A stretch of DNA of 64,000 nucleotides from Thermodesulfovibrionia bacterium (GCA_020057065.1 JAGVGM010000277.1:1794-65793), one strand, 5' to 3'; shown: positions 24,764 to 53,237, counted from the first letter of the stretch. Made by a program: numbers and translations. The notes: a model not told the origin generated them from the sequence alone.

Positions 24764-25546
24764 ATGAAAAATAAATTCATTTTTATCGGGGGGCTGCACA
24801 GAAGCGGCACATCCGTATTTTTTCAATGCCTGCGGGATCATCCCATGATCAGCGGATTCCGGGACACGGGAGCATGGGAAGATGAAGGACAGCACCTGCA
24901 ATCCGTTTATCAGCCTGCGAAGTTTTATGGAGGGCCGGGGAGGTTCGGATTAAGAAAAGAGGCTCATCTGACGGAAGAGTCTAAATTGGTTTCCGATGAG
25001 AACAGGATAAGACTGTTCTCTGACTGGCAAAAGCACTGGGATATCAATAAGCCCTTCCTGCTTGAGAAATCCCCGCCGAACTTAATAATGACAAGATTTT
25101 TACAGGAAATGTTCCCTGACTCATATTTTCTTATAATAACAAGACACCCTGTTGCGGTCTCGTTTGCGACACAGAAGTTTGTAGGGGGCAGGGCCTCAAT
25201 TCATTCCATGCTCAGACACTGGCTGGTCTGTCATGAGATCTTCTGGAGAGACAGTCGGCATTTGAAGAATTTATATATACTTAGATACGAGGATTTTGTT
25301 AAGGACCCGTCCTTGTACCTGCAGAACATTTACTCATTTTTAGGAATAGACGGCTATAACACCGATCTGGAAGTCCGCGCCAATATCAATGACAGGTATT
25401 TTAAGAAATGGGAACAGTACAATAATAGCGTGATCAAAAAACCCTATACCAATTTCCTGAAATTGAAATTTGAGAGATCGGTTAACCGCTTTGGTTACAG
25501 CTTACATGACCTGAAAACCACAAAAGCGGAAAATGCATATTTCTAA
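24764..25546 (+). CDS. Sulfotransferase-family protein
   Basis: 5'-PSB-like FIGGLHRSGTS and 3'-PB-like IITRHPVAVSFA. Confidence 0.7.
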   Translation: MKNKFIFIGGLHRSGTSVFFQCLRDHPMISGFRDTGAWEDEGQHLQSVYQPAKFYGGPGRFGLRKEAHLTEESKLVSDENRIRLFSDWQKHWDINKPFLLEKSPPNLIMTRFLQEMFPDSYFLIITRHPVAVSFATQKFVGGRASIHSMLRHWLVCHEIFWRDSRHLKNLYILRYEDFVKDPSLYLQNIYSFLGIDGYNTDLEVRANINDRYFKKWEQYNNSVIKKPYTNFLKLKFERSVNRFGYSLHDLKTTKAENAYF

Positions 25547-25601
25547 TTTTGACTGTATCAGATTTTAATCCGTAACTACTTCAAGTGAAAACATAAAAGA
25601 T

Positions 25602-26435
25602 ATGCAAAAAGAAGATCGCACAATTGAACAACTTGAAAGGCATTATGTAATTGAAAAAGCTCTTGCCGATAAACTAAAAAAAGCGAGCCTTGAAGAAAGG
25701 AGATATCTCTATTCCGTCTTATATAGTGAACTTTTCAATAAAGTCCCTGATCATCCACAACTCACGCGAAAAGTTAATGAAAGCATGCGGTCAAAGCATG
25801 TTTCTTCTCAAATAAAAAAACTAATTCCATTATTAAGCGAAAAAATGACTTTTTTAGAATTGGGGGCAGGAGACTGTAGTTTGTCTTATGAGGTATCTAA
25901 ATATGTTAAGAAGGTGATCGCGGTAGATGTATCAGCTGATATAGCTAAATCAGATTTATTGCCATCAAATTTCGAGTTGATCATTTCTGATGGGTCGTCC
26001 GTCAATGTTCAACCAAATACTGTCGACATCGCTTATAGTAACCAACTTATGGAGCATCTGCATCCTGATGATGCTTTGATGCAATTGAAAAACATATACA
26101 AGACGCTTGTATCGGGTGGTATCTATATATGCATTACACCTCATCGATTTTTAGGGCCGCATGATATATCTGAGCATTTTGATAAAGTTGCCACCGGATT
26201 TCATCTCAAAGAGTATACATATTCAGAATTATACAAAATGTTTAAAAGTGCTGGTTTCTATAGAATCTATCCTGTCTTTAGTTTCAAAGGGAGGCACTTT
26301 AAATTACCTTTATGGCCTCATGTGATTTTGGAGAAAATGCTATATGTTTTGTTAATGTTTGTTTCTAGAAACATGAAAAGATCTCTTTCTCAAATGCGAC
26401 TTTTTGGGATTGAAATAATTGCAATAAAGCGATGA
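25602..26435 (+). CDS. Class I SAM-dependent methyltransferase
   Basis: Motif I FLELGAGDCS, then VIAVDVS and LMEHL. Confidence 0.75.
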   Translation: MQKEDRTIEQLERHYVIEKALADKLKKASLEERRYLYSVLYSELFNKVPDHPQLTRKVNESMRSKHVSSQIKKLIPLLSEKMTFLELGAGDCSLSYEVSKYVKKVIAVDVSADIAKSDLLPSNFELIISDGSSVNVQPNTVDIAYSNQLMEHLHPDDALMQLKNIYKTLVSGGIYICITPHRFLGPHDISEHFDKVATGFHLKEYTYSELYKMFKSAGFYRIYPVFSFKGRHFKLPLWPHVILEKMLYVLLMFVSRNMKRSLSQMRLFGIEIIAIKR

Positions 26436-26439
26436 ATTG

Positions 26440-28878
26440 ATGGATAACTTCAGTAAAATAGTGATCACCACTGAAGAAAGTGCCGGAATGGAACGTATCA
26501 TGGAGCCTGTAACTTTTGGGATTCCCTTTCCAAAGGGATATTTGAAGGAAAAAACACATTTAGGTATTTATGACTCAAAAGGCAATACGATCCCATTTCA
26601 AATAAAAATATTGTCTAACTGGCAAGAACAGAGTGTGAAATGGGCCTTGTTGGATATTCTTGTGAATTGTGAACCTAAATCAGCGGTTAATTATTACCTT
26701 ATTTTAAAAGATCAGCCATTTTTGGAAGAAGGACAACATTATGACTCGATAAAAATTGAAGAAAGTAATTCATCTATTACCATCGACACTGAAAAAGCAA
26801 TATTTATTATTGACAAGAAGACCTTTATGCCCTTTAGACAGGTAAATATTTCAGGAGTTAACGTTATTGACCAATCAAATTCCTGTATGATGCTCAAAGA
26901 CGAATTTAATAGAGAATATACCCCGAAAATTAAAAATATTAGCATTGAAACAAGAGGATTAATCAGAAGCACGGTCAAAGCGCAAGGTCAATTCGTATAT
27001 AAGGATGGATCCGTATTTTCTGATTTTCTTGCGAGAGCATCTTTTTATGCCGGGAAGAGATTCGCAAAAATAGACTTTACAATTAGAAATTCTAAAGCGT
27101 CTAAACACCCCGGTGGCTTATGGGACTTGGGAGATGAAGGGTCTATCTACTTTAAAGACCTGTCATTTAACTTTGCCCTGACTGAGAAAAAAGATATTTC
27201 CATATTCTGGAAAACTGAAATTAATGAAAAAGAAAGGCGTCTGAACAACGATAAAATAGAAATTTATCAGGATTCAAGTGGTGGAGTAAAATGGGACAGT
27301 CTGAACCATGTTAATAAGAACGGGAAAGTTATGAACTCTTTCAGAGGGTACAAGGTTTACTCAGTTGACTTACTGGAACAAGGATTCAGGGCTACTCCAA
27401 CAATAGTCGTTCAGTCGCAAAACAGAAAGATGGCGGCTACCCTGCAAAAATTCTGGCAAAACTCTCCTAAAGCAATAGAGGCTGAAAACAATTTATTAAC
27501 TTTAAGATTATTTCCACACCAGTACAACGACGTCTATGAACTTCAGGGCGGAGAACAAAAAACGCATACAATATTCCTGGTCTTTGGACATGATAACAAT
27601 GAAGATATAAATATAGACTGGGTACATGCCCCTCTTGTTGCAAAGGCGTCTCCTAATTGGTATGCAAAAACCGGTGCACATGGATATTTAGCTTCTGCTG
27701 CAGATAATAAAAATCCTGATTACCAGGCGTTGATTGAGCATGCTATTTTAGGGGACAAAAATTTCTTTGATCTGCGTGAGGAAGTAGATGAGTACGGATG
27801 GCGTAATTTTGGAGAAGTATATGCAGATCATGAGATCGTTAACTATAAAGGAGGCCGTTTTCCTTTTATATCACACTATAATAATCAGTATGATGTTATC
27901 AATGGCTGTATCTTGCAATATTTACGCTCGGGAGATATTAGATGGTATGATTTAATGACCGATCTTACAAAACATGTTATAGATATTGACATTTATCACA
28001 CAACTAAGGACAGGAATGCATTTAATAATGGCACGTTCTGGCATACAAATCATTTTATGCATGCTGAAACTTCTACTCATAGATCATTTTCTTGCAAGCA
28101 TCAAAACAACGAAAAAACTTATTCTTATGGAGGAGGGCCTTCACCGGAAAACTGTTATTCTACAGGCCTTCTTAATTATTATTATCTTACCGGTGAGGAG
28201 TTGGCCAAAGAAACAATTTTGGAGTTGTCTAAGTGGATATTAAGCCAGGACAAAATGGACAATAATCTTATTGGAATTATACGAGGAATTAAAAAAAGAA
28301 TATCATCATCATTAAATGAATTCTCAGGTTCTCCAACAAGAAGTCAGGCTAATATGCTTAATACATTGTTAGATGCTTTTGAACTAACTAATGATAGGGA
28401 ATATCTTTCAAAAGCAGAAAAGCTTATTAAAAAATTTATAAGTCCGGTTGATGATATTAACAGGTTTAATGAAAATGAAGTAATAAAATTCGGACACATT
28501 CTCTTTCTGCAATCATTAGGAAAATATCTTGACGTCAAAGAAGGTATGGATGAAAAAGACGACATGTATAATTATACTAAGAAAAGCTTCTTGTATCATG
28601 CAATGTGGATGTTAGATAATGAAGTGCCCTATAAGAAAATATTCCATAAACTTGATATCCCCAGTTCCACTTGGCCGGCACATGATGTGCGAAAAAGTGC
28701 TATCTTTAATTTTGCATATAAATATGCTGACGGACCTCTTAAGCATAAATTCAAGGCTAAGGCTGAATTTTTCTTTAATACAGCTATCAAAGATGTTTTA
28801 TCTTTTAGTGATGAGTCGATGTACTTTGTCCGCCCCTTGGCTGTTCTTATGCATTACGGTGTTATGCATATATATTAA
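26440..28878 (+). CDS. Large (812 aa) cytoplasmic-looking protein of unknown function; possibly a polysaccharide lyase/hydrolase-like beta-sandwich plus alpha/alpha-toroid
   Basis: Long uninterrupted ORF, 5 nt after the methyltransferase stop. No signal peptide or TM is visible. The fold suggestion rests only on a weak recollection of PcRGLX/YetA-like N-termini. Confidence 0.6.
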   Translation: MDNFSKIVITTEESAGMERIMEPVTFGIPFPKGYLKEKTHLGIYDSKGNTIPFQIKILSNWQEQSVKWALLDILVNCEPKSAVNYYLILKDQPFLEEGQHYDSIKIEESNSSITIDTEKAIFIIDKKTFMPFRQVNISGVNVIDQSNSCMMLKDEFNREYTPKIKNISIETRGLIRSTVKAQGQFVYKDGSVFSDFLARASFYAGKRFAKIDFTIRNSKASKHPGGLWDLGDEGSIYFKDLSFNFALTEKKDISIFWKTEINEKERRLNNDKIEIYQDSSGGVKWDSLNHVNKNGKVMNSFRGYKVYSVDLLEQGFRATPTIVVQSQNRKMAATLQKFWQNSPKAIEAENNLLTLRLFPHQYNDVYELQGGEQKTHTIFLVFGHDNNEDINIDWVHAPLVAKASPNWYAKTGAHGYLASAADNKNPDYQALIEHAILGDKNFFDLREEVDEYGWRNFGEVYADHEIVNYKGGRFPFISHYNNQYDVINGCILQYLRSGDIRWYDLMTDLTKHVIDIDIYHTTKDRNAFNNGTFWHTNHFMHAETSTHRSFSCKHQNNEKTYSYGGGPSPENCYSTGLLNYYYLTGEELAKETILELSKWILSQDKMDNNLIGIIRGIKKRISSSLNEFSGSPTRSQANMLNTLLDAFELTNDREYLSKAEKLIKKFISPVDDINRFNENEVIKFGHILFLQSLGKYLDVKEGMDEKDDMYNYTKKSFLYHAMWMLDNEVPYKKIFHKLDIPSSTWPAHDVRKSAIFNFAYKYADGPLKHKFKAKAEFFFNTAIKDVLSFSDESMYFVRPLAVLMHYGVMHIY

Positions 28879-29001
28879 GTGAAGTGTGCTTTATTATCTA
28901 ACATTATTAAATTAATAATAAGAGAAAATTCAAAGAAGGGAAGGTCATATTTGAACGAAAAACTGATTTATTGTTGATTTTTCCTACATCCAATTTCAAT
29001 T

Positions 29002-30069
29002 ATGATGAAGAAATATATTATTTCATTATCCTTAATGGGACTAAGTATATTAATAATTTTTTGCTCTGGCGAAGTTATGCTTAGATTGTTTGGATATTAT
29101 GGTGAAGCATCCTTGAGAATTTCCAATGCATATCCAGTTGATGATCCTATTATAAATTATCGATATAAACCTGGAAGTGTATATTCTATTGGAAACATTA
29201 AATATAAAATCAATAGTAATGGACTGCGAGACAATAATCATCATTTTCAGAAAGCAAATAATGTTTATCGTATTATGATGTTGGGAGATTCTGTTGCCGA
29301 AGGATATGGTGTAAATTTTGAGGAAACTGTTGGTAACCAGTTAGAAAAAATGATGAATTATAGAATCATGAGCCGTAAAGTTGAAGTTGTTAATATCGCT
29401 ATGTCCGGCTTAAATACCTATCAGGAAGCGCATCTTCTCCAGACAATAGGTATTAAGTATGCGCCTGATTTGATAATCCTTTGTTATGTTATGAATGATG
29501 CTGGAGAAAGTATTCGTTTTAAGAAAAATGAAAAAAGAAAGAAGTATTCTAAAATTAATTTGGTCAACTTAAGAATTCCAATATCGATTAAACATACATT
29601 GAAAAAATCAGCACTTATTTATTTTATCAAGAATAAAATTGATGCATTATTGTGGCAATTTAATATCAACGATTCTGATGATCCTTTCAATAGTATAAAG
29701 ACAGATTATTTCCAAAGTATTTACAGTGATGATAAAAAGTGGCATCAGGTACTGGAAGGATTTTCGACTATTTCTCAGATTGCAAAAGAACTGCATAGCG
29801 ATATAATAATGGTTATATTCCCAATAATGTATAACTTTGATAATTATGATTGGGCTAATATACACTCAAGAGTAAGACAAAGTGGAGAAGAACAAGGTTT
29901 TTATGTTCTAGATCTTCTATCTGAATATTCAAAATATTCAGTTAAAAGCCTGCGCTTAGAGAGAGGTGATTTTATCCATCCCAATAAAGAAGGACATCAA
30001 ATTGCTGCAACAGAACTACTTAAGTATATCAAAGAATATAATTTAATGAAAAATATTCATAGTGATTGA
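29002..30069 (+). CDS. SGNH/GDSL hydrolase-family protein with N-terminal membrane anchor
   Basis: Block I MLGDSVAEG, block II AMSGLNT, block III VMNDAG, block V DFIHPNKEGH. Confidence 0.8.
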   Translation: MMKKYIISLSLMGLSILIIFCSGEVMLRLFGYYGEASLRISNAYPVDDPIINYRYKPGSVYSIGNIKYKINSNGLRDNNHHFQKANNVYRIMMLGDSVAEGYGVNFEETVGNQLEKMMNYRIMSRKVEVVNIAMSGLNTYQEAHLLQTIGIKYAPDLIILCYVMNDAGESIRFKKNEKRKKYSKINLVNLRIPISIKHTLKKSALIYFIKNKIDALLWQFNINDSDDPFNSIKTDYFQSIYSDDKKWHQVLEGFSTISQIAKELHSDIIMVIFPIMYNFDNYDWANIHSRVRQSGEEQGFYVLDLLSEYSKYSVKSLRLERGDFIHPNKEGHQIAATELLKYIKEYNLMKNIHSD

Positions 30070-30225
30070 TTCTGCTATGTATATTAAGGACGTTTATACA
30101 AAAAAGGATGCTGCTCTTTAATAATAATATAAATCATGGTCTTTAAACTATTGTTGATGGTTGCTATTATAATTTATCTGAATGATATGAGAAAAAACAG
30201 ATAGCATGATGCCTTGTATTCTACT

Positions 30226-31347
30226 ATGAGCAAAATCAGGGTATTGCAGTTTGGCAGCAGTAATGAACTATTCGGGGCGGAACGATGGATATTAGCACTT
30301 GTCAGATATTGCAATCACAGCGAGGTTGAGAATACTATTTTCACGGTCAAAGATTCACCAACTGCGCGTATTGATCTGATAGACAGGGCCAAACAGATGG
30401 GCTTTAGTACGGATTTGGTGCATGCCAGAGGCCCTTTTGATCCGCGAGTTATCTTTCGTACTGCCGGGCTAATTAGAAAGCATAAGGCTGATATTATGCA
30501 CACCCACGGTTATAAATCGGATATTATCGGATATCTTGCCGCAAAGCTAACAGGCATCCCGGTTATCAGCACACCTCATGGTTCTGAATTGTCAAATAAT
30601 AGTAAAGCAAATTTATATCATAAACTTGACGATAAATTTCTAAAATGGGTAAATATGGTTGTACCTGTTTCCGAAGGATTGAAGGACGAATATCTCGTCA
30701 AAAAGCTAAAGCCGGAGAAAATTCAAGTAATAAAAAACAGCGTCGATATTTTAGAAGTGGAAGAGACTAAGCCTGACCGGAGTTTATTATCAATGAAGAA
30801 TGAAGGGAACATAAAGATCGTAGGTTATGTCGGGCAGTTGATCGAGAGAAAGGGCTTGCCGAATTTAATAAAGGCAATGGTAACCGTTGTTAAAACTCAC
30901 AGCGTCAAGTTGATCTTTGTCGGGGAAGGCCCTATGAGAGATAAACTGGTAAATATGGCTGCGGAGTACGGTCTTTCCGGCAGCGTTGAATTTCTTGGGT
31001 TCCGTCCGGATCGAATTGCGCTTATGAAGTGTTTTGATGTTTTTGTTCTTCCATCATATATTGAGGGTATTCCAAGAGTTATAATGGAAGCTATGGCCGC
31101 AAGAGTTCCCGTGATCGCTTCAGACATCCCCGGGATTCGTGAGATCGTGCATCACGACAAGACAGGCTGTTTGGTTTCCGTAGATTCACCTAACCTGCTG
31201 GCTAACTGCATTCTGCAAGTTATGAACGATACTCAAAAAGCCGAGCGTTTGAGCAATAGTGCCTTTGAGCATGTAAGACGTAATCATTCTGCTGAGAGAA
31301 TGGCACAGGAATATACAGAATTATATAGAAATATATTATGTTCTTAA
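30226..31347 (+). CDS. GT4 glycosyltransferase
   Basis: EGIPRVIMEAMAARVPVIASDIPGIREIVHHDKTGCLV. ATG 30226 is preferred over TTG 30214. Confidence 0.85.
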   Translation: MSKIRVLQFGSSNELFGAERWILALVRYCNHSEVENTIFTVKDSPTARIDLIDRAKQMGFSTDLVHARGPFDPRVIFRTAGLIRKHKADIMHTHGYKSDIIGYLAAKLTGIPVISTPHGSELSNNSKANLYHKLDDKFLKWVNMVVPVSEGLKDEYLVKKLKPEKIQVIKNSVDILEVEETKPDRSLLSMKNEGNIKIVGYVGQLIERKGLPNLIKAMVTVVKTHSVKLIFVGEGPMRDKLVNMAAEYGLSGSVEFLGFRPDRIALMKCFDVFVLPSYIEGIPRVIMEAMAARVPVIASDIPGIREIVHHDKTGCLVSVDSPNLLANCILQVMNDTQKAERLSNSAFEHVRRNHSAERMAQEYTELYRNILCS

Positions 31348-31377: not shown

Positions 31378-32673
31378 ATGTTGAATGTATTACTAATTAC
31401 AATTGATTCTTTAAGGCCGGATTTTCTTGGGTGTTACGGCAATGCGGAGAAATTGTCTCCCACTATAGACCTGCTGGCTGAAGAAGGGGTATTGTTTAAG
31501 TCGGTTATTTCCCAAGGACCGCGGACTCCTGAATCCTTCCCGGCACTGTTGTCAGGCCAATATACAAACAGGCACCTCGATCAATTTGAAAAACTTTCAG
31601 GAAAGAGAACAATGATATCAGAAATCTTGAAGGACAACGGTTATACCACGGCTGCGTTCCATTCGAGTCCATATGTTTCCAGGATAAAAGGTTTTGACAG
31701 GGGGTTTGATTATTTTAAAGATAATATTTTCATATTCAAGAAGACCATGAAAATGTATTGGATCAAAAAGGTGCTTACCCGTATTAAAACGATCTTTACA
31801 ATTCCCTATGTGCTTGGCAGTGTCATCAATAAACAGGTAGAGCGCTGGATTGCCGAAAACTCGAAGCCGCATTTTTTGTGGGTTCATTATATGGATGTGC
31901 ACGGACCTTATATTTCAAGAAAAGGATGGTATTTAAAAAACAGGCTCAAGGCTGGGATGCTCTGGCGAATATCCACTACTTATCCGAATCGTTTAAAGGA
32001 AGACCAAAAGCAATATCTAGTTCGATGCTATAAGGAAGAAATAACTCATGCTGATTCTTGCATTAAAGAACTGTTAGACCATGTAAACCTCGATAACACG
32101 ATTGTAATCTTAATGGCGGATCACGGCGAATTTATGGGAGAGCACGGTTTTTTTGGCCACCCCCCCTATTACTTGTATGATACGCTTTTAAAGATTCCGC
32201 TTATTATCAAATTTCCTGAAAGCATGAAGATAGGAAAGAAAAATATCGACAGGACGGTGCGGTCACTCGATGTTGTGCCTACGATTCTGGACATTTTAAA
32301 TATCAAACCCGAAGTGGGGATGGATGGCGAAAGCTTGCTGCCGCTTATGAAGGGAGATATGGATTCGTACGAATGTGACGTATTTGTCAGCGAAATATGG
32401 ACCAATCATCTCGCAATAAGAAAAGACAACTGGAAACTTATTTATTGGATGAAGGACGGCGTTAAGATTCTTAGGTTGTTTGATCTTTCCAAAGATCCCA
32501 AGGAATTGGTAAATTTGGCCGAAGAGAGACCGGATATTGTGAGAAAAATGGAGCAGCTTATTGCTAAGCATTTAAATAATATCAATGCGCCTTCAAAGGA
32601 TTTGGCGTCATTAAACTTTGAAACAGACAATGAAGAAGTTAAAGCAAAACTTAAAGCCTTAGGATATTTATAA
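31378..32673 (+). CDS. Sulfatase-like hydrolase/transferase (alkaline-phosphatase superfamily) lacking the formylglycine motif
   Basis: LLITIDSLRPD and MADHGEFMGEHGFFGH. The nucleophile region reads GPRTPESFPALLSG instead of C/S-x-P-x-R. Confidence 0.75.
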   Translation: MLNVLLITIDSLRPDFLGCYGNAEKLSPTIDLLAEEGVLFKSVISQGPRTPESFPALLSGQYTNRHLDQFEKLSGKRTMISEILKDNGYTTAAFHSSPYVSRIKGFDRGFDYFKDNIFIFKKTMKMYWIKKVLTRIKTIFTIPYVLGSVINKQVERWIAENSKPHFLWVHYMDVHGPYISRKGWYLKNRLKAGMLWRISTTYPNRLKEDQKQYLVRCYKEEITHADSCIKELLDHVNLDNTIVILMADHGEFMGEHGFFGHPPYYLYDTLLKIPLIIKFPESMKIGKKNIDRTVRSLDVVPTILDILNIKPEVGMDGESLLPLMKGDMDSYECDVFVSEIWTNHLAIRKDNWKLIYWMKDGVKILRLFDLSKDPKELVNLAEERPDIVRKMEQLIAKHLNNINAPSKDLASLNFETDNEEVKAKLKALGYL

Positions 32674-32691: not shown

Positions 32692-33633
32692 ATGACAGAA
32701 AAAGATTTTCTTAAACCACTATCAGAAGTTAAACCCATTTTTGTAGTAGGATGCGGTCGCTCCGGCACTTCAATGCTTCTTAAAATTCTTAATCAGCACT
32801 CTTCAATAGCTATCCCCTCGGAATCTCATTTCCTGATTGATTATATGAAAAAACACGATAAGTATGAGACACTTGAGGATGATAGGGTTATCGAAAAGCT
32901 GTTCAGAGACATCTTAAATGAACCATTTGTAAAAGAGTTTAAAGCTAAATATAACATTCAGCAACTTGTTAAATCTGTAAAATCACGCACTTATGCCGGG
33001 GTGGTTAACGCCATTTATGACACCTACAGGCTCCAGCATAACAAAGCTAGATGGGGGGATAAAACACCACCTTATGTTCATTACATAAATGAAATTCTGA
33101 GGATATTCCCTGAATCCCAATTCATACATATTATAAGAGACGGCCGTGATTGTGCACTGTCTGTCATTGAACAACCCTGGGGGCCGAAAAATATTTTTAG
33201 ATCTGCTCTTATGTGGAAACGTGCTGTAACAGACGGTATGGAGCAGGGGAGAAAACTGCCTCCGTCGCAATACATCGAAATTAGGTATGAGAAAATACTC
33301 ACATCTCCAGCAGATGAGCTGGGGAGACTTTTTTTATTTCTTGATGAACCGTTAGGCAGTGACAAACTTAAGGCTATGGATTTTAAGAAGGGTAATTATT
33401 ATAAATGGAAACATAGAATGTCCGACAGAGATAAAAAAATATTTGAGAAAATAGCCGGGGATTTACTGGAAGAATTGGGCTATGAGAGAATTTATAATCC
33501 TGTAAATCCCTTGAATGCGTTCGAAAAGGCTTATTACAGTATTGATAATCGTGTTAGAACCGCTAAGAACATTATTTTTGACATACAAAGGGCTTGGAAA
33601 CTCAAATTTCATACGCCGAGAAACGTAGAATAA
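32692..33633 (+). CDS. Sulfotransferase-family protein
   Basis: 5'-PSB VVGCGRSGTSM and 3'-PB IIRDGRDCALS. Confidence 0.8.
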   Translation: MTEKDFLKPLSEVKPIFVVGCGRSGTSMLLKILNQHSSIAIPSESHFLIDYMKKHDKYETLEDDRVIEKLFRDILNEPFVKEFKAKYNIQQLVKSVKSRTYAGVVNAIYDTYRLQHNKARWGDKTPPYVHYINEILRIFPESQFIHIIRDGRDCALSVIEQPWGPKNIFRSALMWKRAVTDGMEQGRKLPPSQYIEIRYEKILTSPADELGRLFLFLDEPLGSDKLKAMDFKKGNYYKWKHRMSDRDKKIFEKIAGDLLEELGYERIYNPVNPLNAFEKAYYSIDNRVRTAKNIIFDIQRAWKLKFHTPRNVE

Positions 33634-35340: not shown

Positions 35341-35369
35341 GAAAAAATTATTCAGATAACCGAGAGGGT

Positions 35370-38849: not shown

Positions 38850-39342
<493 letters not shown>

Positions 39343-44557: not shown

Positions 44558-44610
44558 AAAAAAACCCCCCTATCAAAATGAGCTTAATGCCCCATTAGAT
44601 AGGGGTTTTT
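44558..44610. terminator. Bidirectional hairpin between convergent cysC and the FN3 protein gene
   Basis: AAAAAAACCCCCCTATC...GATAGGGGTTTTT. An 8-bp GC-rich stem is flanked by an A-run and a T-run. The loop is about 23 nt, which is long. Confidence 0.5.
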
Positions 44611-44615: not shown

Positions 44616-46487
44616 TTATTTCTTGATCTTGACAGACATTACATCATAGTAATATGTTTCAGGGTCTATCGAGCCGTTCTTATTTGTATCAACCCCAAAG
44701 TAAAGGTTATATAAACCCTTTGGTAATCCTTTCATTTTCAGCGTCTCAACACTGACCGTATTAACAAGTGGTTTCTGATCATACTGTAAAATGCCAAGCC
44801 GCCATCTTTCAGACAGAGTGTCATAGTAGTACCAGTTATTTTTTCTTTCTAACAGCACCCACCATTCGGCATCAATCCCCTCATAACTTTCAGGATTAAG
44901 CTGTAATTCTATTTCAGCCGTTTTACCTTTTCTCAATTTAATAAAATCATCTGAACCGTTAACCTTAATTTCAGGTGCGGGATTTATAATATCAGTGCCG
45001 GGCCCTGTTAGGGGAATAGTAAATGCTGGGGTATTTGGATCATTGGAGTTAATTAAAAGATCTGCGCTCTTTGACCCCTCTGCAGCAGGCTGGAAAACTA
45101 TATCAAGCATACACGACTCCGCAGGTTGTAGTGTTTGATTGGTGCAACTATTGGTGTTTAATGTGAAACTGCCAGCATCTGCCCCAATAACACTAATGGC
45201 ATTTATGGATAGCTCTTGCACGCCTGTATTTGAGATCAAAATTGTTTGTTTTGAGGATGGCTCCATTATTGTACTTGAAAACTCAAGTTGAGTTGGTTGA
45301 CAGGTTACCCAGACATTATCAAGTGCCCAGAACTCATTGGTTGAATTGCCCGTATAACTGAATCTTATCTTTGCGTTATCAGTATCTGCAGCATCGCTTA
45401 TATCAATGGTTTTCCAGTTCGGGTCCGGATACCCATCTCTTAACGGCATGTTGACAGTATTTGTCCAGTTAGATCCTCCGTCATCACTGATATTGATTTC
45501 GACATTGCCGTTTATCAGATGACGCTGGTTGCTGAATGCAAGTTCAACGCTATTACAGGATGTGGTATCCAATACCGGGGTTATCAGTTCATCGGTCCCT
45601 GTCATTGTGCAGGATGAATCTGCTATTGCGAACGGTGCAACAAATGGAGAACTTATGGTCTTTTCACAAGGATTATCTGTATTCCAGTTACCAGCTTTTT
45701 CCCAGGTGTTTGGTATTCCACCTGAGAAATCCTCACTTAACAGCACTTTGCTTACACTAATGGCAGATGTGCATCCTTCGTCAACCTGACCATTACAGTT
45801 GTTGTCTGATCCGTCACATACTTCAGCGGTTGGCGTATAGGGATTGCAAGTATTAATTAGTTGACCACTTGTACATTGCTGAGTCCCTGTGGAGGAGCAA
45901 GCCCCTACACCGCAGATAGTAGTTGATGGTACAAACCCCTCATCAACCTGGCCGTTGCAGTTATCATCTGTTCCATTACAAATGGTATCCGGAGCGCCGG
46001 GGTTAATAATAGCGTTGTTATCATTACAGTCATTGCCTGCTGTTGTCTGGCATCCTGCCGGTTGACAGCCTGTTCCGGTACAGGTGCCGTCAGTTGATGA
46101 ACTTATGTAACCATCATTGTCTTTATCGCAGTAGTAACTTATTGCAGTAATAGTTGTACTTATTTCATTGGAAGCAATGCTTTGATTGCCGCTCGTATCA
46201 TATGCAGTTATAGCAAAATAGTATGAAGATCCGGCTGAAAGATCTGTGATTGTGTAGCTTGTTACATTGCCGGCATCATTACTTTGAGTATAATTTCCTG
46301 AGATTAGGCCATAGTAGACTCTATAGCCTGCCAGGTCTCTCAAAGGCGTACCGTCAGCATTTGTGGTTGGGGGGGTCCAGGAAAGGGTTATATTTGTTGC
46401 GAATAGAACGGAAGCGCTAAAAAGGCTTATCAGAAAAAATATGAACCCGAAATATACTCTTTTATGTTTTGTGTATGTTTTTGACAT
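44616..46487 (-). CDS. Secreted multidomain protein (FN3, Cys-rich putative metal-binding repeats, lectin-like domain, choice-of-anchor-D/ASH-like domain)
   Basis: Signal anchor, then an FN3-like domain (ITLSWTPPTTNADGTPL..GYRVYYG). There are two C..DCNDNN..INPGA..CNG.DDNCNGQVDEG-type repeats. ILISNTGVQELSINAISVIGADAGSF is typical of choice-of-anchor D. Confidence 0.7.
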   Translation of the reverse strand: MSKTYTKHKRVYFGFIFFLISLFSASVLFATNITLSWTPPTTNADGTPLRDLAGYRVYYGLISGNYTQSNDAGNVTSYTITDLSAGSSYYFAITAYDTSGNQSIASNEISTTITAISYYCDKDNDGYISSSTDGTCTGTGCQPAGCQTTAGNDCNDNNAIINPGAPDTICNGTDDNCNGQVDEGFVPSTTICGVGACSSTGTQQCTSGQLINTCNPYTPTAEVCDGSDNNCNGQVDEGCTSAISVSKVLLSEDFSGGIPNTWEKAGNWNTDNPCEKTISSPFVAPFAIADSSCTMTGTDELITPVLDTTSCNSVELAFSNQRHLINGNVEINISDDGGSNWTNTVNMPLRDGYPDPNWKTIDISDAADTDNAKIRFSYTGNSTNEFWALDNVWVTCQPTQLEFSSTIMEPSSKQTILISNTGVQELSINAISVIGADAGSFTLNTNSCTNQTLQPAESCMLDIVFQPAAEGSKSADLLINSNDPNTPAFTIPLTGPGTDIINPAPEIKVNGSDDFIKLRKGKTAEIELQLNPESYEGIDAEWWVLLERKNNWYYYDTLSERWRLGILQYDQKPLVNTVSVETLKMKGLPKGLYNLYFGVDTNKNGSIDPETYYYDVMSVKIKK

Positions 46488-46549: not shown

Positions 46550-46635
46550 GTTTCTTCGGCAGCCTGGCCATCCCAATACTGCGGGATCCGCGGCTTTGTG
46601 CCCCCCGGTTACCCGGGGTTTACCGTTTCGGAAAC
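46550..46635 (-). ncRNA. Candidate c-di-GMP-I (GEMM-I-like) riboswitch aptamer in the 5' leader
   Basis: A GC-rich island in AT-rich intergenic DNA. The RNA reads GUUUCCGAAACGGUAAACCCCGGGUAACCGGGGGGCACAAAGCCGCGGAUCCCGCAGUAUUGGGAUGGCCAGGCUGCCGAAGAAAC. The layout is GGUAAA, a 6-bp stem with a GUAA (GNRA) loop, GGCACAAAGCC, then a second hairpin. This mirrors the remembered Vc2 GGGCAAA-stem(GAAA)-GGACGCAAAGCC-stem. Confidence 0.4.
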
Positions 46636-46932: not shown

Positions 46933-46948
46933 TGGCATATATATTGCT
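46933..46948 (+). promoter_or_regulatory. Sigma-54 (-24/-12) promoter of the first PEP-CTERM gene
   Basis: TGGCAT-ATATA-TTGCT has exact GG-N10-GC spacing and ends 70 nt before ATG 47019. Confidence 0.75.
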
Positions 46949-47018: not shown

Positions 47019-47654
47019 ATGAATAAAATAGTAAAAATCTTATTAGTCTTAGTAGCTGTAATAGGTATAATGGGAGTTCAGCCAGCTAATGCTGTTCCTA
47101 CCCTTACATTAACAAGTGGTGCATTTTCATTCACAATTACTGATGAAGGAATTGGGGATTTGACCACTGGTGCGGGTGCTATGACTTTTAGTGGCGCAGT
47201 TGGCGACTTTATTGTTAACGTATCAACAGGCATCACAAAGCCGGTTCTGGGTTCTGCGAGCATGCCTTGGATGGATCTTAATTCAGTTAATGTATCATCA
47301 AAAGCTGCCACATTAGAAATTTGGTTCGATGATTCAGGATTTACCTATAACGGTGGTTTGATAATGAACGTAGGCGGTACATTCCAGAACACAGCAACAT
47401 TCGAAACCCGTGTTAATGGAACAACGATCAGTTCCCTTATTTTAGGTCCTGGACCAGCTGCTGGTACAACTGGCGGTGCTGCGTCACTGACGTCCTCTGA
47501 CACGCTGACTTTATACACTAATATCAATCATTTAAAAGCTGGCGCTACAAGCTTTGACCAGGAAGTTGTAACACCTGAACCAAGTACATTATTGCTCCTG
47601 GGTTCGGGTCTGGTAGGCGCTGCATTCTACGCAAGACGCAGAAAAGTAAAATAG
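47019..47654 (+). CDS. PEP-CTERM sorting-domain secreted protein
   Basis: Signal peptide, and a C-terminal VTPEPSTLLLLGSGLVGAAFYARRRKVK. AAGGAGG precedes the start. Confidence 0.92.
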   Translation: MNKIVKILLVLVAVIGIMGVQPANAVPTLTLTSGAFSFTITDEGIGDLTTGAGAMTFSGAVGDFIVNVSTGITKPVLGSASMPWMDLNSVNVSSKAATLEIWFDDSGFTYNGGLIMNVGGTFQNTATFETRVNGTTISSLILGPGPAAGTTGGAASLTSSDTLTLYTNINHLKAGATSFDQEVVTPEPSTLLLLGSGLVGAAFYARRRKVK

Positions 47655-47678
47655 CTCATAAGTTAACAATATAAAAAA

Positions 47679-47712
47679 GGCGGTTGCAAATTTTTGCAAC
47701 CGCCTTTTTTTT
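47679..47712 (+). terminator. Rho-independent terminator
   Basis: GGCGGTTGCAAATTTTTGCAACCGCC followed by T8. Confidence 0.85.
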
Positions 47713-48011: not shown

Positions 48012-48027
48012 TGGCATGTAAATTGCA
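48012..48027 (+). promoter_or_regulatory. Sigma-54 (-24/-12) promoter of the second PEP-CTERM gene
   Basis: TGGCAT-GTAAA-TTGCA ends 70 nt before ATG 48098. Confidence 0.75.
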
Positions 48028-48097: not shown

Positions 48098-48757
48098 ATG
48101 AAAAATATAAGCAAGATTCTAATTATTGCGTTCGCACTATCTATACTGATTGGTATTCAATCTGTGTACGCAATCCCGACTCTTCAATTGAAGAGTGGTG
48201 CAACTACAAAGACGATTGCTGATGGGAGCATTTTAGACGCTAATTCTGAAGCAGGTGTAGTTACTTACATTGGTGCGGTTGGCATTTTCAATCTTAATGT
48301 AACAACAGGAGTTACCAAGCCAGCGCTTGGTTCTGCTACATTACCAGATTTGGATCTGAATTCAGTAGACCTAAACTCAAGTGGAGCCGGAACTCTTAAG
48401 ATATTATTTACTGACGACAATTTCGGTCCGTATACCGGTGGATTTCTATTCAATGTAGGCGGCACTACCAATAATAATACTGTTGGGTTCAAGGCTTATG
48501 TTGATTCTGTACAAATTGTAGATTTAGGGACATTTGGTGGCAGTGGCTCACAGGCATTTAGTGGCAGTGGTTCTGGCGGTAATGGAGTCTATTTAAATCC
48601 ATTTACATTAACCACTGAAGCTACGATCACAACTACTGGTAGATCCAATGTCAGTTTTGATGCAGAACTTGTTACACCGGAACCGAGCACAATAATGCTC
48701 TTAGGCTCAGGTTTAATTGGCGCTGCTATTTACGCAAGACGCAGAAAAATAAAATAG
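48098..48757 (+). CDS. PEP-CTERM sorting-domain secreted protein (paralog of 47019-47654)
   Basis: Signal peptide, and a C-terminal VTPEPSTIMLLGSGLIGAAIYARRRKIK. The core GAVG.F..NV.TG.TKP.LGSA is shared with the paralog. Confidence 0.92.
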   Translation: MKNISKILIIAFALSILIGIQSVYAIPTLQLKSGATTKTIADGSILDANSEAGVVTYIGAVGIFNLNVTTGVTKPALGSATLPDLDLNSVDLNSSGAGTLKILFTDDNFGPYTGGFLFNVGGTTNNNTVGFKAYVDSVQIVDLGTFGGSGSQAFSGSGSGGNGVYLNPFTLTTEATITTTGRSNVSFDAELVTPEPSTIMLLGSGLIGAAIYARRRKIK

Positions 48758-48783
48758 CTTATTAGACATATAATAATAAAAAA

Positions 48784-48816
48784 GGCTTTTGCAGAATTTT
48801 GCAAAAGCCTTTTTTT
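48784..48816 (+). terminator. Rho-independent terminator
   Basis: GGCTTTTGCAGAATTTTGCAAAAGCC followed by T7. Confidence 0.85.
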
Positions 48817-50057: not shown

Positions 50058-52127
50058 ATGATAACATTTATATTTTCAATAATTACAGCTATTGTTGCAA
50101 TTGTCATAGCTTTTGTAGTTTTTCTTAAGAGATACAACCGTCTTTCTCATATAGCGTTTTTTGTAAGCATGCTTTCGACAGCATTTGTGATCTTTGGGGA
50201 TTCAATGTGCATGCTTAATCCTGAATCTATAATTCTCTGGAAGAGATTTGTATTTATAGTTGAGGCGTTGATGGCCACTTCATGGCTTTTATTTGCCATG
50301 AGTTTTGCTCGTGCTGATTATTGGCATGTTGTTAGCAAGTTCTCCAAGCTTCTATTAATGTTATCCCCTCTTTTTGCATATTTTTTTATTGCTATACCGA
50401 TTGAAAATTTCTTTCTTTCTCCCGATTCCGAGTTCAGGAATGAAAAGATTCTTTTCTTGGGGAACACTGGATATGTATTCAACCTTCTGCTTCTTCTCTA
50501 TTCTGTTGTATCAATTATTAATTTAGAGACAACGTTGAGAAGTTCTTCTGGAGTTAACAAGTGGCAAATTAAATATACTGTTATGGGGGCAGGCGGCATT
50601 ATTGCATTTAATATTTTTTATTATAGCTACGCTCTCCTTTATCGTTCAATTAACATGGACTTATTACCGGTAAGGGATGGAATTGTTCTTGTTTCAAATA
50701 TGGTTATAGGATTTTCAATTCTCAGGCACAAGGCGATGGATGTTGAAGTTGCTATATCACGAAATATATTGTTCAGATCGCTAAGTATTTTTATTGTAGG
50801 ATTTTACCTGCTTGGACTTGGGTTAATAGGCGAAGGGATGAGGTATTTGGGTCCGAGAGCTGGTACGAATATTACGATCTTTCTGGGTTTCATTGGCGCT
50901 ATCGTGGTCCTGACAATTATTCTTTCAGAACAATTGCGAAGGAAAGCAATAGTTTTTATTCACAAGAATTTTTATAGTTACAAGTATGATTACAGGGAAC
51001 AGTGGCTGAGTTTTACACAGCGTATTTCTTTAAAAAACGATTTTGATGAATTATTGGGATCGATAGCTGAAGGTTTTAAGGAAGCAATAGGTTCAACAGG
51101 AGCGGCAATATGGTTGAAGGGCAGGGATAATAAGGAATATGTATGTGTTAAGGTTTTGGAAACAAATATTGTTAAGGCTGCTCCGGGCAGCAGGCTTATA
51201 GAATTTCTTCAGAATAAAAAATGGATCTTAAATGTCCATGATAATGAATGTAAAACAGTTGTGTCTGACAATAAGGAATTTATCGAAAAGACCGGAGCAT
51301 CTCTTATAGTTCCTCTTATTCATATTGACAGGCTTATTGGTTTTATTATTCTCAGGGAGAGCCTTGCCGAGAATGAATATAATTATGAGGACTTTGATTT
51401 GCTTAAGACGCTGGCCAAACAGGCGTCCCTGGCAATTGTGAATACACAGCTTGCTGATGAGCTGATAGAGGCAAAAGAAATGGAGGCGATGGGAAGATTA
51501 TCATCGTTCATAATACATGATCTCAAGAATTCAGCCTCTATGCTTTCAATGATAGCACAAAATTCAGAAGAGCATATTGATAATCCGGATTTCCAGAGAG
51601 ATGCGATGCGGGCGGTATCTAATACCTCAGAAAAAATCAGGGGTATTATAGATAAATTGAAAAACCTGCCGATTAAAGCAGAACTGCACCTCAAATATTA
51701 TGATCTGTGTGAGTGCGTTAAGTCAGCTATTGCTCAGGTTGGTTTAAATGGAAAAGCGAATTTGTCTTATAAAGAAATTGAAAACGTAAGTACAAAATTC
51801 GATAATGAAGAACTTTCAAAGGTTATTATTAATCTCATAATGAATGCATTTGATGCAACCGGGATGAAGGGCGAAATAAAAATATCCACCGGCACTGAAA
51901 ATGGCGCTGCTTTCATCAGAGTTTCTGATAATGGATGCGGGATGTCAACTGATTTTATAGATAGAAATTTATTCAGGCCGTTCCAAACTACAAAGAAAAA
52001 AGGGCTTGGAATAGGTCTTTATCAATGTAAGACAATTATAGAGGCCCATTCTGGTAGAATGTTAGTAGAGAGTCAAGAGGGTAGGGGAACTGAATTTATA
52101 ATTTACTTGCCCATAATTTCGCATTGA
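50058..52127 (+). CDS. prsK: PEP-CTERM system sensor histidine kinase (PrsK-like)
   Basis: Multi-TM N-terminus, a GAF-like middle region, H-box SSFIIHDLKNS, and HATPase motifs NLIMNAFDA, DNGCGM and GLGIGLYQCK. Confidence 0.88.
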   Translation: MITFIFSIITAIVAIVIAFVVFLKRYNRLSHIAFFVSMLSTAFVIFGDSMCMLNPESIILWKRFVFIVEALMATSWLLFAMSFARADYWHVVSKFSKLLLMLSPLFAYFFIAIPIENFFLSPDSEFRNEKILFLGNTGYVFNLLLLLYSVVSIINLETTLRSSSGVNKWQIKYTVMGAGGIIAFNIFYYSYALLYRSINMDLLPVRDGIVLVSNMVIGFSILRHKAMDVEVAISRNILFRSLSIFIVGFYLLGLGLIGEGMRYLGPRAGTNITIFLGFIGAIVVLTIILSEQLRRKAIVFIHKNFYSYKYDYREQWLSFTQRISLKNDFDELLGSIAEGFKEAIGSTGAAIWLKGRDNKEYVCVKVLETNIVKAAPGSRLIEFLQNKKWILNVHDNECKTVVSDNKEFIEKTGASLIVPLIHIDRLIGFIILRESLAENEYNYEDFDLLKTLAKQASLAIVNTQLADELIEAKEMEAMGRLSSFIIHDLKNSASMLSMIAQNSEEHIDNPDFQRDAMRAVSNTSEKIRGIIDKLKNLPIKAELHLKYYDLCECVKSAIAQVGLNGKANLSYKEIENVSTKFDNEELSKVIINLIMNAFDATGMKGEIKISTGTENGAAFIRVSDNGCGMSTDFIDRNLFRPFQTTKKKGLGIGLYQCKTIIEAHSGRMLVESQEGRGTEFIIYLPIISH

Positions 52128-52223
52128 TCAAAATGCAGAAAGTGTAAAATATCATATAAAGTATTTTAAGGCTTCTACCGAATAATGACTAATGGTAAAA
52201 GCAAAAACAACTATTGATCAAGA

Positions 52224-52356
52224 GAGGCTTTTGCAAAAGTCTTAGTTTGTCATTCCCGAGGTCTTTATCGGGAATCCAGTATTCTTTAAAAACAGTGCCT
52301 TCTGGATTCCCGTTTTCACGGGAATGACAGATAAGCTATACTTTTGCAAGAGCCTC
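52224..52356. repeat. Nested palindrome, family 2 (GTCATTCCCG...CGGGAATGAC type)
   Basis: The outer arms are GAGGCTTTTGCAAAAG / CTTTTGCAAGAGCCTC. The inner parts are TGTCATTCCCGAGGTCTTTATCGGGAATCCAG and CTGGATTCCCGTTTTCACGGGAATGACA. Confidence 0.85.
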
Positions 52357-52412
52357 AAGTTTGAATAAAATTTATTATTTACCAATAACCAACCAACAAA
52401 AAAGGAGAAACA

Positions 52413-53237
52413 ATGGATATAAAAGATAGAGAAATGCTAATGGCGATGAACATTGAAGACAAGATCACTCAGTCCAAGAAGGTCATAAAAGAGGCTATAG
52501 AGAAATTCGGGACGGAGAAATTAGCGGTAGCATGGACCGGAGGCAAGGACAGCACAACAATGACATGGTTGTTTAGAGAGGCATGTAAGGATCTGGGAGC
52601 GCCGATGCCTAAAATTATGTTCATTGATGAGGGATATGTATTTGAAGAGATCTGGGATATTGTAAATAAACTGAAAAAAGAATGGGATCTTAATGTGGTA
52701 ATTTCAAAGAATACGGATGTAAGTGATAAGGCAAAGAATATCGGGGACATGATCAAGGTAAACAGTCTTGATGAGCGCAACAGAAGTGAAATTGTTAAGC
52801 TTGGTTTTGAAGGAGAGGAATTTCCGTTTGAGCCTGAATCTTTTGTCGGCAATCATTTAATGAAGACTGTTGCAATGAATGTCTTTCTGGAGGATAATGA
52901 TATACAGGCCCTTGCAACCGCTATCAGATGGGATGAACAGACAGCACGCATTGCCGAAACATATTTCAGCCCGAGAAGCAACCCGCCGCATACAAGGATA
53001 CAGCCCATTTTACATTTTAAGGAGAGGGATATCTGGAACTTTATTTTTGAATATAAGGTTCCTTTCTGTGTTTTATACAACGAGGGGTACCGGTCGCTCG
53101 GTGCAAAAGGTTCTACAGTTAAATTGTCTGACATCCCGGCATGGGAGCAGGATCTCGAAAATACGACTGAAAGGGCCGGACGCGGACAAAATAAGGAAGA
53201 AGTCATGGGTAAGCTGAGAGATTTGGGTTATATGTAA
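52413..53237 (+). CDS. CysD-like PP-loop protein (PAPS reductase/ATP sulfurylase small-subunit family)
   Basis: PP-loop AVAWTGGKDSTT, YRSLGA, and a C-terminal TERAGRGQNKEEVMGKLRDLGYM resembling the CysD tail (ER.GR..D....ME..K..GYF). There is no CysH-type ECGLH. Confidence 0.7.
   Translation: MDIKDREMLMAMNIEDKITQSKKVIKEAIEKFGTEKLAVAWTGGKDSTTMTWLFREACKDLGAPMPKIMFIDEGYVFEEIWDIVNKLKKEWDLNVVISKNTDVSDKAKNIGDMIKVNSLDERNRSEIVKLGFEGEEFPFEPESFVGNHLMKTVAMNVFLEDNDIQALATAIRWDEQTARIAETYFSPRSNPPHTRIQPILHFKERDIWNFIFEYKVPFCVLYNEGYRSLGAKGSTVKLSDIPAWEQDLENTTERAGRGQNKEEVMGKLRDLGYM

Follow-up and report, generated by a model that had tools for sequence, protein, structure and literature searches.

A stretch of 64,000 nucleotides (nt) from Thermodesulfovibrionia bacterium GCA_020057065.1 (JAGVGM010000277.1:1794-65793; hereafter the window, with coordinates counted from its first letter) was found to carry a complete XrtA/PEP-CTERM locus, extending from PrsT through PrsR on the + strand (9-55996), in which genes for two sulfotransferases (ST1 and ST2) and an adenylyl-sulfate (APS) kinase (CysC) are set among those for exopolysaccharide (EPS) assembly. 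This arrangement is likely to represent an XrtA-type EPS locus with an add-on sulfation module, the product of which would be a sulfated exopolysaccharide. The host is an uncultured member of the Nitrospirota as judged by the names of its homologs (Nitrospirae, Nitrospiraceae or Thermodesulfovibrionia metagenome-assembled genomes [MAGs]), and the matching read sets were groundwater and sediment metagenomes. Most of the XrtA/PEP-CTERM-specific NCBIfam families were detected as markers of the locus, the majority above their curated cutoffs.

The two sulfotransferases were examined by profile, alignment and structural modeling. ST1 (24764-25546, +; 260 amino acids [aa]) and ST2 (32692-33633, +; 313 aa) matched Sulfotransfer_3 with E-values of 1.7e-22 and 3e-36, respectively (81.2 and 126.2 bits vs a Pfam cutoff of 27). 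An initial annotation of the window had proposed four open reading frames (ORFs) for sulfate activation and transfer, namely two sulfotransferase-fold proteins with motifs for binding 3′-phosphoadenosine 5′-phosphosulfate (PAPS), an APS kinase and a 'CysD-like' PP-loop protein; all four were found where it had placed them with every quoted motif in translation, including GGLHRSGTS and ITRHPVAVS in ST1 and GCGRSGTSM and IIRDGRDCALS in ST2. Since the similarity between ST1 and ST2 is confined to the P-loop region, the two come from different subfamilies. In the ST1 family (61 members), near-invariant residues were (i) H12-R13-S14-G15; (ii) E41; (iii) E101-K102-S103-P104; and (iv) R127-H128-P129, while those invariant or nearly so in the ST2 clade (65 family members) were G20, R23-S24-G25-T26, E44-S45(-H46), D123-K124-T125-P126, R149-D150-G151-R152-D153 and S157. 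These conserved residues align with the PAPS 5′-phosphosulfate loop, catalytic Glu, Lys and 3′-phosphate Arg/Ser of tyrosylprotein sulfotransferase (TPST) and the CurM sulfotransferase, such that the equivalents of the 5′-phosphosulfate-binding loop are HRSGTS in ST1 and GRSGTS in ST2, with E41/E44 as the Glu base and K102/K124 as the Lys. Absence of a PAPS site on structural modeling had been set beforehand as a finding that would speak against the sulfotransferase assignment; instead, the site was present in the AlphaFold (AF2) models of ST1 and ST2 (pLDDT of 93.3 and 93.8, respectively, and pTM of 0.90 for both). Among the 50 Foldseek matches to PDB listed for each protein, all were PAPS-type sulfotransferase-fold proteins, including TPST1/2, CurM/OLS ST, Stf0/1/9, heparan-sulfate (HS) 3-OSTs and NDST, with TPST, CurM ST, Stf1/9, HS 3-OST and NDST at the top for ST2. 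The ST1 family also includes cyanobacterial sulfotransferases of 51-55% identity. The database gene call for ST1 is a 233-aa protein that starts at M28 and has lost the P-loop; the 260-aa ORF is correct, as homologs align from its first residues. By sequence and model alike, ST1 and ST2 are genuine and probably active PAPS-dependent sulfotransferases. Both are free of signal peptides and transmembrane segments and are predicted to be cytoplasmic, which fits action on a lipid-linked repeat unit in the cytoplasm, where PAPS is available.

The best PDB matches of ST1 and ST2 in both sequence and structure were tyrosylprotein sulfotransferases, as would be seen if one or both of these proteins sulfated tyrosines of PEP-CTERM or other secreted proteins in the manner of TPST or RaxST. 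However, few proteins of solved structure are reached by Sulfotransfer_3-type queries, TPSTs being among them, and the identity is just 17-25%. Furthermore, no Tyr was found in an acidic cluster in either of the PEP-CTERM proteins of the window, homologs of both sulfotransferases occur in glycan clusters showing no PEP-CTERM proteins, and the ST1 gene of relatives is coupled in translation to one resembling that of a carbohydrate enzyme. Protein tyrosine sulfation is thus regarded as extremely improbable.

The gene encoding CysC, the PAPS-making enzyme (43940-44551, +), was found immediately after epsI, as the initial annotation had described. Judged by its sequence, CysC is a genuine APS kinase, with scores of 265.2 bits vs 163 for NF003013 and 240.1 vs 138.7 for TIGR00455, a Pfam APS_kinase E-value of 7.7e-63 and an intact P-loop (GLSASGKST). 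Preceding it are the exosortase XrtA (42318-43166, +; TIGR03109, 224.6 bits vs a cutoff of 208; Exosortase_EpsH, 6e-77), for which the XrtD, XrtW and XrtB models all scored below cutoff, and EpsI (43289-43915, +; TIGR02914, 122 bits vs a cutoff of 42.8). The start of cysC lies 24 nt past the epsI stop, and a terminator-like hairpin with a T-tract, detected by consensus scan only, is positioned 38 nt past the cysC stop (44589-44606, +) and is followed by a convergent gene; for these reasons cysC appears to be the last gene of an xrtA-epsI-cysC unit, which the 24-nt gap suggests is probably co-transcribed. The gene converging on cysC (44616-46487, -) encodes a 623-aa secreted protein with fn3, MopE-type metal-binding-motif and Ig-like domains, and its 5′ leader contains a c-di-GMP-I riboswitch (46555-46634, -; RF01051, 61.2 bits, E-value 1.6e-9). 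A c-di-GMP-I-GGC riboswitch was detected at the matching place (13948-14027, -) of the orthologous gene in a relative (locus L007, below).

To place these genes in a wider context, 80 other XrtA loci with flanks of up to 10 kb were surveyed in species-representative genomes for co-occurring sulfotransferase and cysC genes, as the initial annotation had suggested. The locus scan was based on a 12-sequence XrtA alignment (a 60-sequence alignment proved too diverse), and the loci were mostly of Nitrospirota, Desulfuromonadales/Geobacter and other Desulfobacterota. Sulfotransferases and cysC were absent from 77-78 of the 80 loci. A cysC gene after epsI was detected in three (L007, L008 and L012), all from close Nitrospirota relatives, with the CysC orthologs at this position being 84% (L007) and 76% (L008) identical where compared. 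Two of these three loci, L007 and L012, also carry sulfotransferase genes, and one marginal sulfotransferase match was found in L051; in L008 the region upstream is not visible. The close relatives L009 and L168 have neither cysC nor sulfotransferases in view. That cysC and the sulfotransferases come and go as a set across XrtA loci supports a functional link between them.

Gene order around the sulfotransferases was likewise conserved. In the window the ST1 segment reads AsnB-type amidotransferase, ST1, methyltransferase, PcRGLX-like protein, GDSL protein and GT4, and the ST2 segment reads sulfatase-like protein, ST2, 560-aa Phosphodiest protein and GT2. On contig L004, where ST2 is 65% identical, the order is GT4, acetyltransferase, AsnB, ST1, PcRGLX-like, GT4, two sulfatase-like genes, ST2 and Phosphodiest. 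The MAG contig L170/L007, from GCA_020723105.1, has a first run of carbamoyltransferase, Wzx, Wzy, GT4, acetyltransferase, AsnB, ST1, PcRGLX-like, GT4 and Phosphodiest, and, past an interval, an ST2-like gene, a GH123-like gene, XrtA, EpsI and CysC, with the order from sulfotransferase through GH123-like, XrtA, EpsI and CysC also found in L012. Thus, the order of the ST1 block is shared with two divergent relatives, L004 and L170, at 55-65% identity, and AsnB is directly 5′ of ST1 in all three. When 80 metagenomic loci around ST2-like genes were compared, the neighbors included GT4, GT2, further sulfotransferases, Wzx, carbamoyltransferase and AsnB, with cysC in 2 of the 80; on a separate contig, three sulfotransferases were found within a Wzx/Wzy cluster. 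Sulfotransferases in glycan clusters are, therefore, widespread among uncultured bacteria. In a soil metagenome contig (L099 and L101, which are identical loci), FemAB, PrsT, PrsR and PrsK were observed at 30-16817 beside GT4, an ST2-like sulfotransferase of 35% identity and a Wzy_C-like gene; no XrtA was detected within the available contig sequence. This contig is likely to be a second, unrelated case of sulfation genes inside a PEP-CTERM locus.

The location of ST1 and ST2 on one strand among glycosyltransferases, Wzx and a Wzy_C-domain gene points to a carbohydrate acceptor. A different acceptor, such as lipopolysaccharide O-antigen or core, a glycolipid or a small molecule, would imply that the sulfotransferases are merely located in the EPS locus, and a faint match of ST2 to the NoeE model (28 bits vs a cutoff of 500) could be read in this way. 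Counter to it, ST1 and ST2 are in the same orientation, separated by short gaps, between EPS glycosyltransferases; this embedding is kept at 55-65% identity; and cysC is tied to xrtA-epsI. Such a displaced function is considered very unlikely. In rhizobia, Nod factors are decorated by the sulfotransferases NodH/NoeE, the PAPS synthesis enzymes NodPQ (including ATP sulfurylase), NodB, NodU and NodS, with a lipo-chitooligosaccharide as the acceptor. The window is similar in that a deacetylase, carbamoyltransferase, methyltransferase, sulfotransferase and dedicated PAPS supply occur together. It differs in that (i) its matches to the NodU, NodB and NoeE models are weak and far below cutoffs; (ii) the Nod-factor acceptor is a signal and not a polymer; and (iii) NodPQ includes the ATP sulfurylase.

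An alternative role for cysC would be in assimilatory sulfate reduction via PAPS, with adjacency to epsI being incidental and the reductase being a 274-aa PAPS_reduct-domain protein encoded 8 kb 3′ of cysC (52413-53237, +; E-value 4.3e-27; TGGKDS PP-loop). This is the protein that had been called 'CysD-like', an assignment that holds at the superfamily level but not beyond it. Scores were below cutoff for all CysD models (80.4 bits vs 195 for NF003587, 51.2 vs 413 for NF009214 and 51.2 vs 396.6 for TIGR02039) as well as the CysH models (55 bits vs 154 and 50.5 vs 165), and no CysN or translational-GTPase match was detected among the window ORFs scanned. The best match in a PDB sequence search was the PAPS-reductase-like domain of eukaryotic FAD synthase, followed by PAPS reductase and then CysD. 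A C-terminal Cys motif, EC[GS][LI]H (ECGLH-type), is a mark of thioredoxin-dependent reductases; it was found in none of 120 homologs of the PAPS_reduct-like protein. These homologs are unusually conserved (70-96% identity across Nitrospirota MAGs), and the gene forms a conserved two-gene cassette with one for a Phosphodiest/NPP-like protein of about 445 aa (443 aa in the window; 53237-54568, +; Pfam 1.9e-49), found at 52413-54568 of the window, 8001-10182 of L167, 10001-12177 of L168 and 984-3151 of L169. Its neighbors include acyl-CoA-ligase-like and Mla genes in L167 and mreBCD in L169, while in L168 the cassette is located between prsK and prsR of an XrtA locus that has neither cysC nor sulfotransferase in view. 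On a Nitrospira contig the PAPS_reduct-like gene lies between prsK and prsR, away from any EPS genes, and in another genome it is among housekeeping genes; its position in L002 is 10001-10825. Overall, the gene was found between prsK and prsR in three contigs, with its partner in two of these, yet in none of the 80 surveyed XrtA loci, though 44 of them include prsK. Identification as CysD was rejected on the basis of the model scores, the missing CysN partner and the recurrence in contexts without sulfation genes; identification as the PAPS/APS reductase CysH was rejected on the basis of the scores and the absence of the Cys motif in homologs. The presence of the gene without cysC in L168 and elsewhere, and the restriction of cysC beside epsI to the sulfotransferase-bearing relatives and L008 (it is absent in the other 77 loci), further argue against assimilation, which we hold to be highly improbable as the function of cysC. 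The PAPS_reduct-like gene is judged not to be coupled to sulfation and not to provide the ATP sulfurylase of the PAPS route. As the protein is not CysD, the sulfate-to-APS step is not encoded in the window; the dedicated sulfate-activation and transfer route proposed in the initial annotation is, thus, present as genes leading from APS through PAPS to the acceptor but is not self-contained.

For the sulfated exopolysaccharide, the following sequence of steps is proposed. APS would be supplied by an ATP sulfurylase encoded elsewhere in the genome, and CysC would phosphorylate it to PAPS. ST1 and ST2 would then transfer sulfate to two positions of a lipid-linked oligosaccharide repeat at the cytoplasmic face of the membrane, before flipping by Wzx. 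The Wzy_C-type protein would polymerize the repeats, and the XrtA-type machinery (chain-length determinant, tyrosine kinase, export protein and outer-membrane protein) would export the polymer. Apart from sulfation, the modifications predicted for this glycan are carbamoylation, acetylation, methylation, amidation and N-deacetylation. Cultured Thermodesulfovibrio are sulfate reducers; if the host is one as well, cysC on its own would be enough, since APS would be in abundance.

Several points weigh against this proposal. The evidence is drawn from sequence, the organism is uncultured, and the co-variation of cysC and sulfotransferases involves very few, phylogenetically related loci viewed with flanks of only 10 kb. 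The nearest solved structures to ST1 and ST2 are protein-tyrosine and polyketide, not carbohydrate, sulfotransferases (TM ~0.55-0.65, 17-25% identity). In addition, no ATP sulfurylase (Sat or CysDN), sulfate transporter or CysQ-type phosphatase of 3′-phosphoadenosine 5′-phosphate (PAP) was detected among the window ORFs scanned, such that the supply of PAPS would depend on genes outside the window. The nature of the sulfated product may also differ from a free polysaccharide. The Wzy_C protein had as its best NCBIfam match 'putative O-glycosylation ligase, exosortase A system-associated', and could act as an O-ligase that places the sulfated glycan on PEP-CTERM proteins, giving proteoglycan-like sulfated glycoproteins that XrtA would anchor or release. 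The locus encodes two PEP-CTERM proteins, both behind sigma-54-like promoters, and sulfated glycoconjugates, not pure polysaccharides, were reported in the EPS of granular sludge (PMC10483923), and these two observations favor a glycoprotein. The ligase match, however, is at 119 bits and below the model cutoff of 188, and a full set for polymer export (chain-length determinant, tyrosine kinase and export protein) is present; the glycoprotein is considered unlikely, and the sulfated exopolysaccharide is preferred.

Comparison to known systems revealed that this combination of genes is without a description that we could find, while the general idea of polysaccharide clusters bearing sulfotransferases is already known. 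A search of the accessible literature returned no paper linking exosortase/PEP-CTERM loci with sulfotransferase or APS kinase, and no XrtA-associated NCBIfam model matched the sulfotransferases, CysC, sulfatase-like or NPP-like proteins of the window. The window resembles the canonical XrtA/PEP-CTERM EPS locus (Haft-type TIGRFAM/NCBIfam set, comprising PrsT, EpsB_2, the export protein, chain-length determinant, tyrosine kinase, ATPase, deacetylase, FemAB, amidotransferase, XrtA, EpsI, PrsK and PrsR) in its marker families, single strand, two PEP-CTERM substrates and PrsK/PrsR, and departs from it by the addition of two sulfotransferases, an adjoining APS kinase, a sulfatase-like protein lacking formylglycine and NPP-like proteins. 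The synechan (xss) cluster of Synechocystis PCC 6803, which directs the synthesis of a sulfated EPS, is similar to the window in being of the Wzx/Wzy type with two sulfotransferases from distinct subfamilies; unlike the window, it is from another phylum and the main text of its description names no exosortase or PEP-CTERM component and no APS kinase, and sulfation of synechan was shown chemically whereas that of the window product is predicted from genes alone (PMC8205485). Sulfated polysaccharides were stated in that 2021 paper to be unreported outside cyanobacteria (PMC8205485). A chemically proven sulfated capsule was described for Vibrio sp. KMM 8419, with a cluster containing cysNDC and sulfotransferases, and its authors proposed that PAPS-synthesis genes and sulfotransferases in a polysaccharide cluster are a hallmark of sulfated polysaccharide synthesis (PMC11641403). 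Co-location of such genes in a polysaccharide cluster is common to the Vibrio strain and the window; the former has the full cysNDC and ABC-transporter (Kps) export, whereas the latter has cysC only and Wzx with XrtA-type export (PMC11641403). With regard to the hallmark, the window has sulfotransferases and cysC together with glycosyltransferase and export genes; of PAPS synthesis, it lacks the half that ATP sulfurylase would provide. The view that sulfated bacterial EPS is uncommon was overstated, as sulfotransferase-bearing polysaccharide clusters are documented (PMC8205485, PMC11641403) and many more are found in metagenomes. In the EPS of granular sludge, sulfated glycoconjugates are common, few sulfotransferase matches were found in the dominant genera and the bacterial pathways were called poorly known (PMC10483923).

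Examination of the proteins encoded around ST1 revealed a patch of low GC content at 25602-30069 (30-35% vs ~40% for the locus), composed of the methyltransferase, PcRGLX-like and GDSL genes. The S-adenosylmethionine-dependent methyltransferase (25602-26435, +; Pfam Methyltransf_11/25/23; GC 35%) is inserted between ST1 and the PcRGLX-like gene in the window and is absent from this position in L004 and L170, where the PcRGLX-like gene instead overlaps the ST1 stop codon by 8 and 14 nt, respectively. The GDSL-family esterase/acyltransferase (29002-30069, +; Pfam Lipase_GDSL_2; GC 30%) has no counterpart in the syntenic L004 and L170 blocks either, and a recent insertion of extra decoration genes is therefore suggested. 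The PcRGLX-like protein (26437-28878, +; 813 aa, three-domain) matched PcRGLX_1st and PcRGLX_2nd above cutoff, appears to be an (alpha/alpha)-toroid with weak toroid matches in its C-terminal half, and has no signal peptide; a PDB sequence search with it was empty. Its assignment as a C5-epimerase was rejected, given that the C5-epim_C match was borderline (22.8-24 bits vs 23.3) and not reproduced in three orthologs, for which generic (alpha/alpha)-toroid matches only were found. The GT4 glycosyltransferase that follows (30214-31347, +; Glycos_transf_1 8e-41) keeps its place in relatives, with the PcRGLX-like gene before it and the ST2 module after it.

ST2 is flanked by two proteins of related character. 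On its 5′ side is a sulfatase-like member of the alkaline-phosphatase superfamily (31378-32673, +; Pfam Sulfatase 2e-41; C-terminus LKALGYL) that has no signal peptide and has lost the formylglycine C/S-x-P-x-R motif (R-T-P-E-S vs S-T-P-A-R in the choline-sulfatase 7oz8), a loss shared by the ortholog and the paralog in L004. A role as a classical sulfatase, in the sense of a desulfating, heparan-Sulf-like editing enzyme, was rejected for lack of this motif and of a signal peptide. On the 3′ side is the 560-aa Phosphodiest/NPP-like protein (33658-35340, +; Pfam Phosphodiest 4.5e-40; tail RLKGLGYY), predicted to be cytoplasmic, which has orthologs with the same tail in L004, L005 and L170, is conserved 3′ of the sulfotransferase block, and had no matches in a PDB sequence search. 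A C-terminal tail of L-[KR]-x-L-G-Y-[LMYF]-stop is common to three unrelated families, the sulfatase-like, NPP-like and PAPS_reduct-like proteins (as well as the L004/L170 orthologs), and reads LGYM in all 120 of the PAPS_reduct-like homologs. This tail may be a common docking or recognition element, and we speculate that the sulfatase-like and 560-aa NPP-like proteins are conserved accessory enzymes for PAP/PAPS handling or for transfer of a phospho-substituent. Between the Phosphodiest gene and that of the GT2 glycosyltransferase (36156-37106, +; Glycos_transf_2 2.9e-23) is an 816-nt gap without a long ORF (35341-36155). It contains a 40-aa ORF (35797-35919; sequence including HAFLLSNGVMTDLIKLEG), which we take to resemble a HAF-type extracellular repeat and which may be the remnant of a decayed PEP-CTERM protein gene.

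The GT2 gene is followed by those of two secreted proteins, XrtA, EpsI and CysC, the convergent minus-strand gene and two PEP-CTERM proteins. Directly 5′ of xrtA is the gene for a 927-aa secreted protein with DNRLRE and GH123_N-like domains (39566-42349, +), conserved at this position in L007, L008, L009 and L012 (51-62% identity); it may encode an EPS-processing glycosidase that is specific to this Nitrospirota clade of close relatives. The 5′ end of this GH123-like gene is duplicated by two 241-nt direct repeats of 88% identity (38528-38768 and 39622-39862), such that the ORF at 38469-38849 is an orphaned N-terminal copy. The repeats enclose a BrnT-toxin gene (38853-39128; Pfam 6e-28) together with an 88-aa ORF that overlaps it.

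The 5′ portion of the locus begins with PrsT, an XrtA/PEP-CTERM lipoprotein with tetratricopeptide repeats (9-2159, +; TIGR02917, 434 bits vs a cutoff of 312), the listed ORF of which spans only model positions 206-896, as the N-terminal part is cut off by the window edge. The core XrtA-type EPS assembly block (2164-22267, +), identified by Pfam and by NCBIfam XrtA/PEP-CTERM models that were mostly above cutoff, is composed of (i) the priming glycosyltransferase EpsB_2, export protein, chain-length determinant, tyrosine autokinase and TIGR03016 outer-membrane protein; (ii) an ATPase, polysaccharide deacetylase, FemAB-family protein, GT2 enzymes and a 322-aa weakly deacetylase-like protein; and (iii) the carbamoyltransferase, Wzx flippase, Wzy_C-domain protein, stp2-like GT4 and hexapeptide acetyltransferase. 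A DUF559 gene forms a small insert between this acetyltransferase and the AsnB-type amidotransferase (22835-24718, +; TIGR03108, 740.6 bits, just under the cutoff of 816.9; Asn_synthase 1.7e-103).

At its 3′ end the locus includes PEP-CTERM protein 1 (47019-47654, +; Pfam PEP-CTERM 2.9e-07) and PEP-CTERM protein 2 (48098-48757, +; Pfam PEP-CTERM 3.6e-07), followed by a Crp-family regulator on the minus strand, the sensor histidine kinase PrsK (50058-52127, +; TIGR02916, 537 bits vs a cutoff of 300), the PAPS_reduct-like and 443-aa Phosphodiest cassette, and PrsR, the sigma-54-dependent PEP-CTERM-box response regulator (54605-55996, +; TIGR02915, 628 bits vs a cutoff of 503). Beyond a tRNA-Leu, the genes are of housekeeping type (BamA, Skp, LpxD, FabZ, LpxA and LpxI). 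Sigma-54-like -24/-12 elements (TGGCAT-N5-TTGC, with one mismatch each) were found on the + strand at 46933-46948, 48012-48027 and 22539-22554. The first two are each ~70 nt 5′ of a PEP-CTERM gene, a placement suggestive of control by PrsR, and the third is 280 nt 5′ of the asnB-ST1 block, within the DUF559 ORF; total matches in the sigma-54 promoter scan were no higher than in shuffled sequence (24 vs a mean of 26). Scans for sigma-70 promoters and terminators were uninformative except for the hairpin 3′ of cysC and the strong palindromes that follow the PEP-CTERM genes. The latter are near-perfect hairpins of 16-17 bp with flanking A and T runs, one 3′ of each PEP-CTERM gene (47673-47710 and 48778-48815), and look like bidirectional terminators.

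A broader interpretation, which we regard as rather improbable, is that a subsurface Nitrospirota clade builds a sulfated glycosaminoglycan (GAG)- or proteoglycan-like matrix by way of the exosortase system, with sulfated glycans polymerized or ligated onto PEP-CTERM proteins and served by a cytoplasmic accessory module not described before. This module would include the sulfatase-like protein without formylglycine, the NPP-like phosphodiesterases with the L-G-Y-[LMYF] tail and the PcRGLX-like toroid enzyme coupled to ST1, and would handle PAPS/PAP or remodel the sulfated sugar. If true, the 'sulfated GAG-like' polymers found chemically in anaerobic granules and biofilms would gain the genetic basis that they have lacked.

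As to the sulfated exopolysaccharide, the range of the sulfation variant of the XrtA locus is so far a small clade of Nitrospirota, to which a PEP-CTERM locus from soil can probably be added. Chemical analysis detects sulfated extracellular polymers in granular sludges and microbial mats, and the formation of flocs and biofilms has been linked to the PEP-CTERM system; the locus described here would connect sulfation to that system. New polysaccharide sulfotransferases are sought-after tools (PMC11641403), and the occurrence of ST1 and ST2 in an XrtA locus with xrtA-epsI-cysC offers a genetic template by which producers of sulfated EPS may be mined from metagenomes. Furthermore, if the host reduces or assimilates sulfate via APS, a single cysC may suffice to divert APS into sulfation of the matrix, which would be a cheap route to a sulfated polymer.

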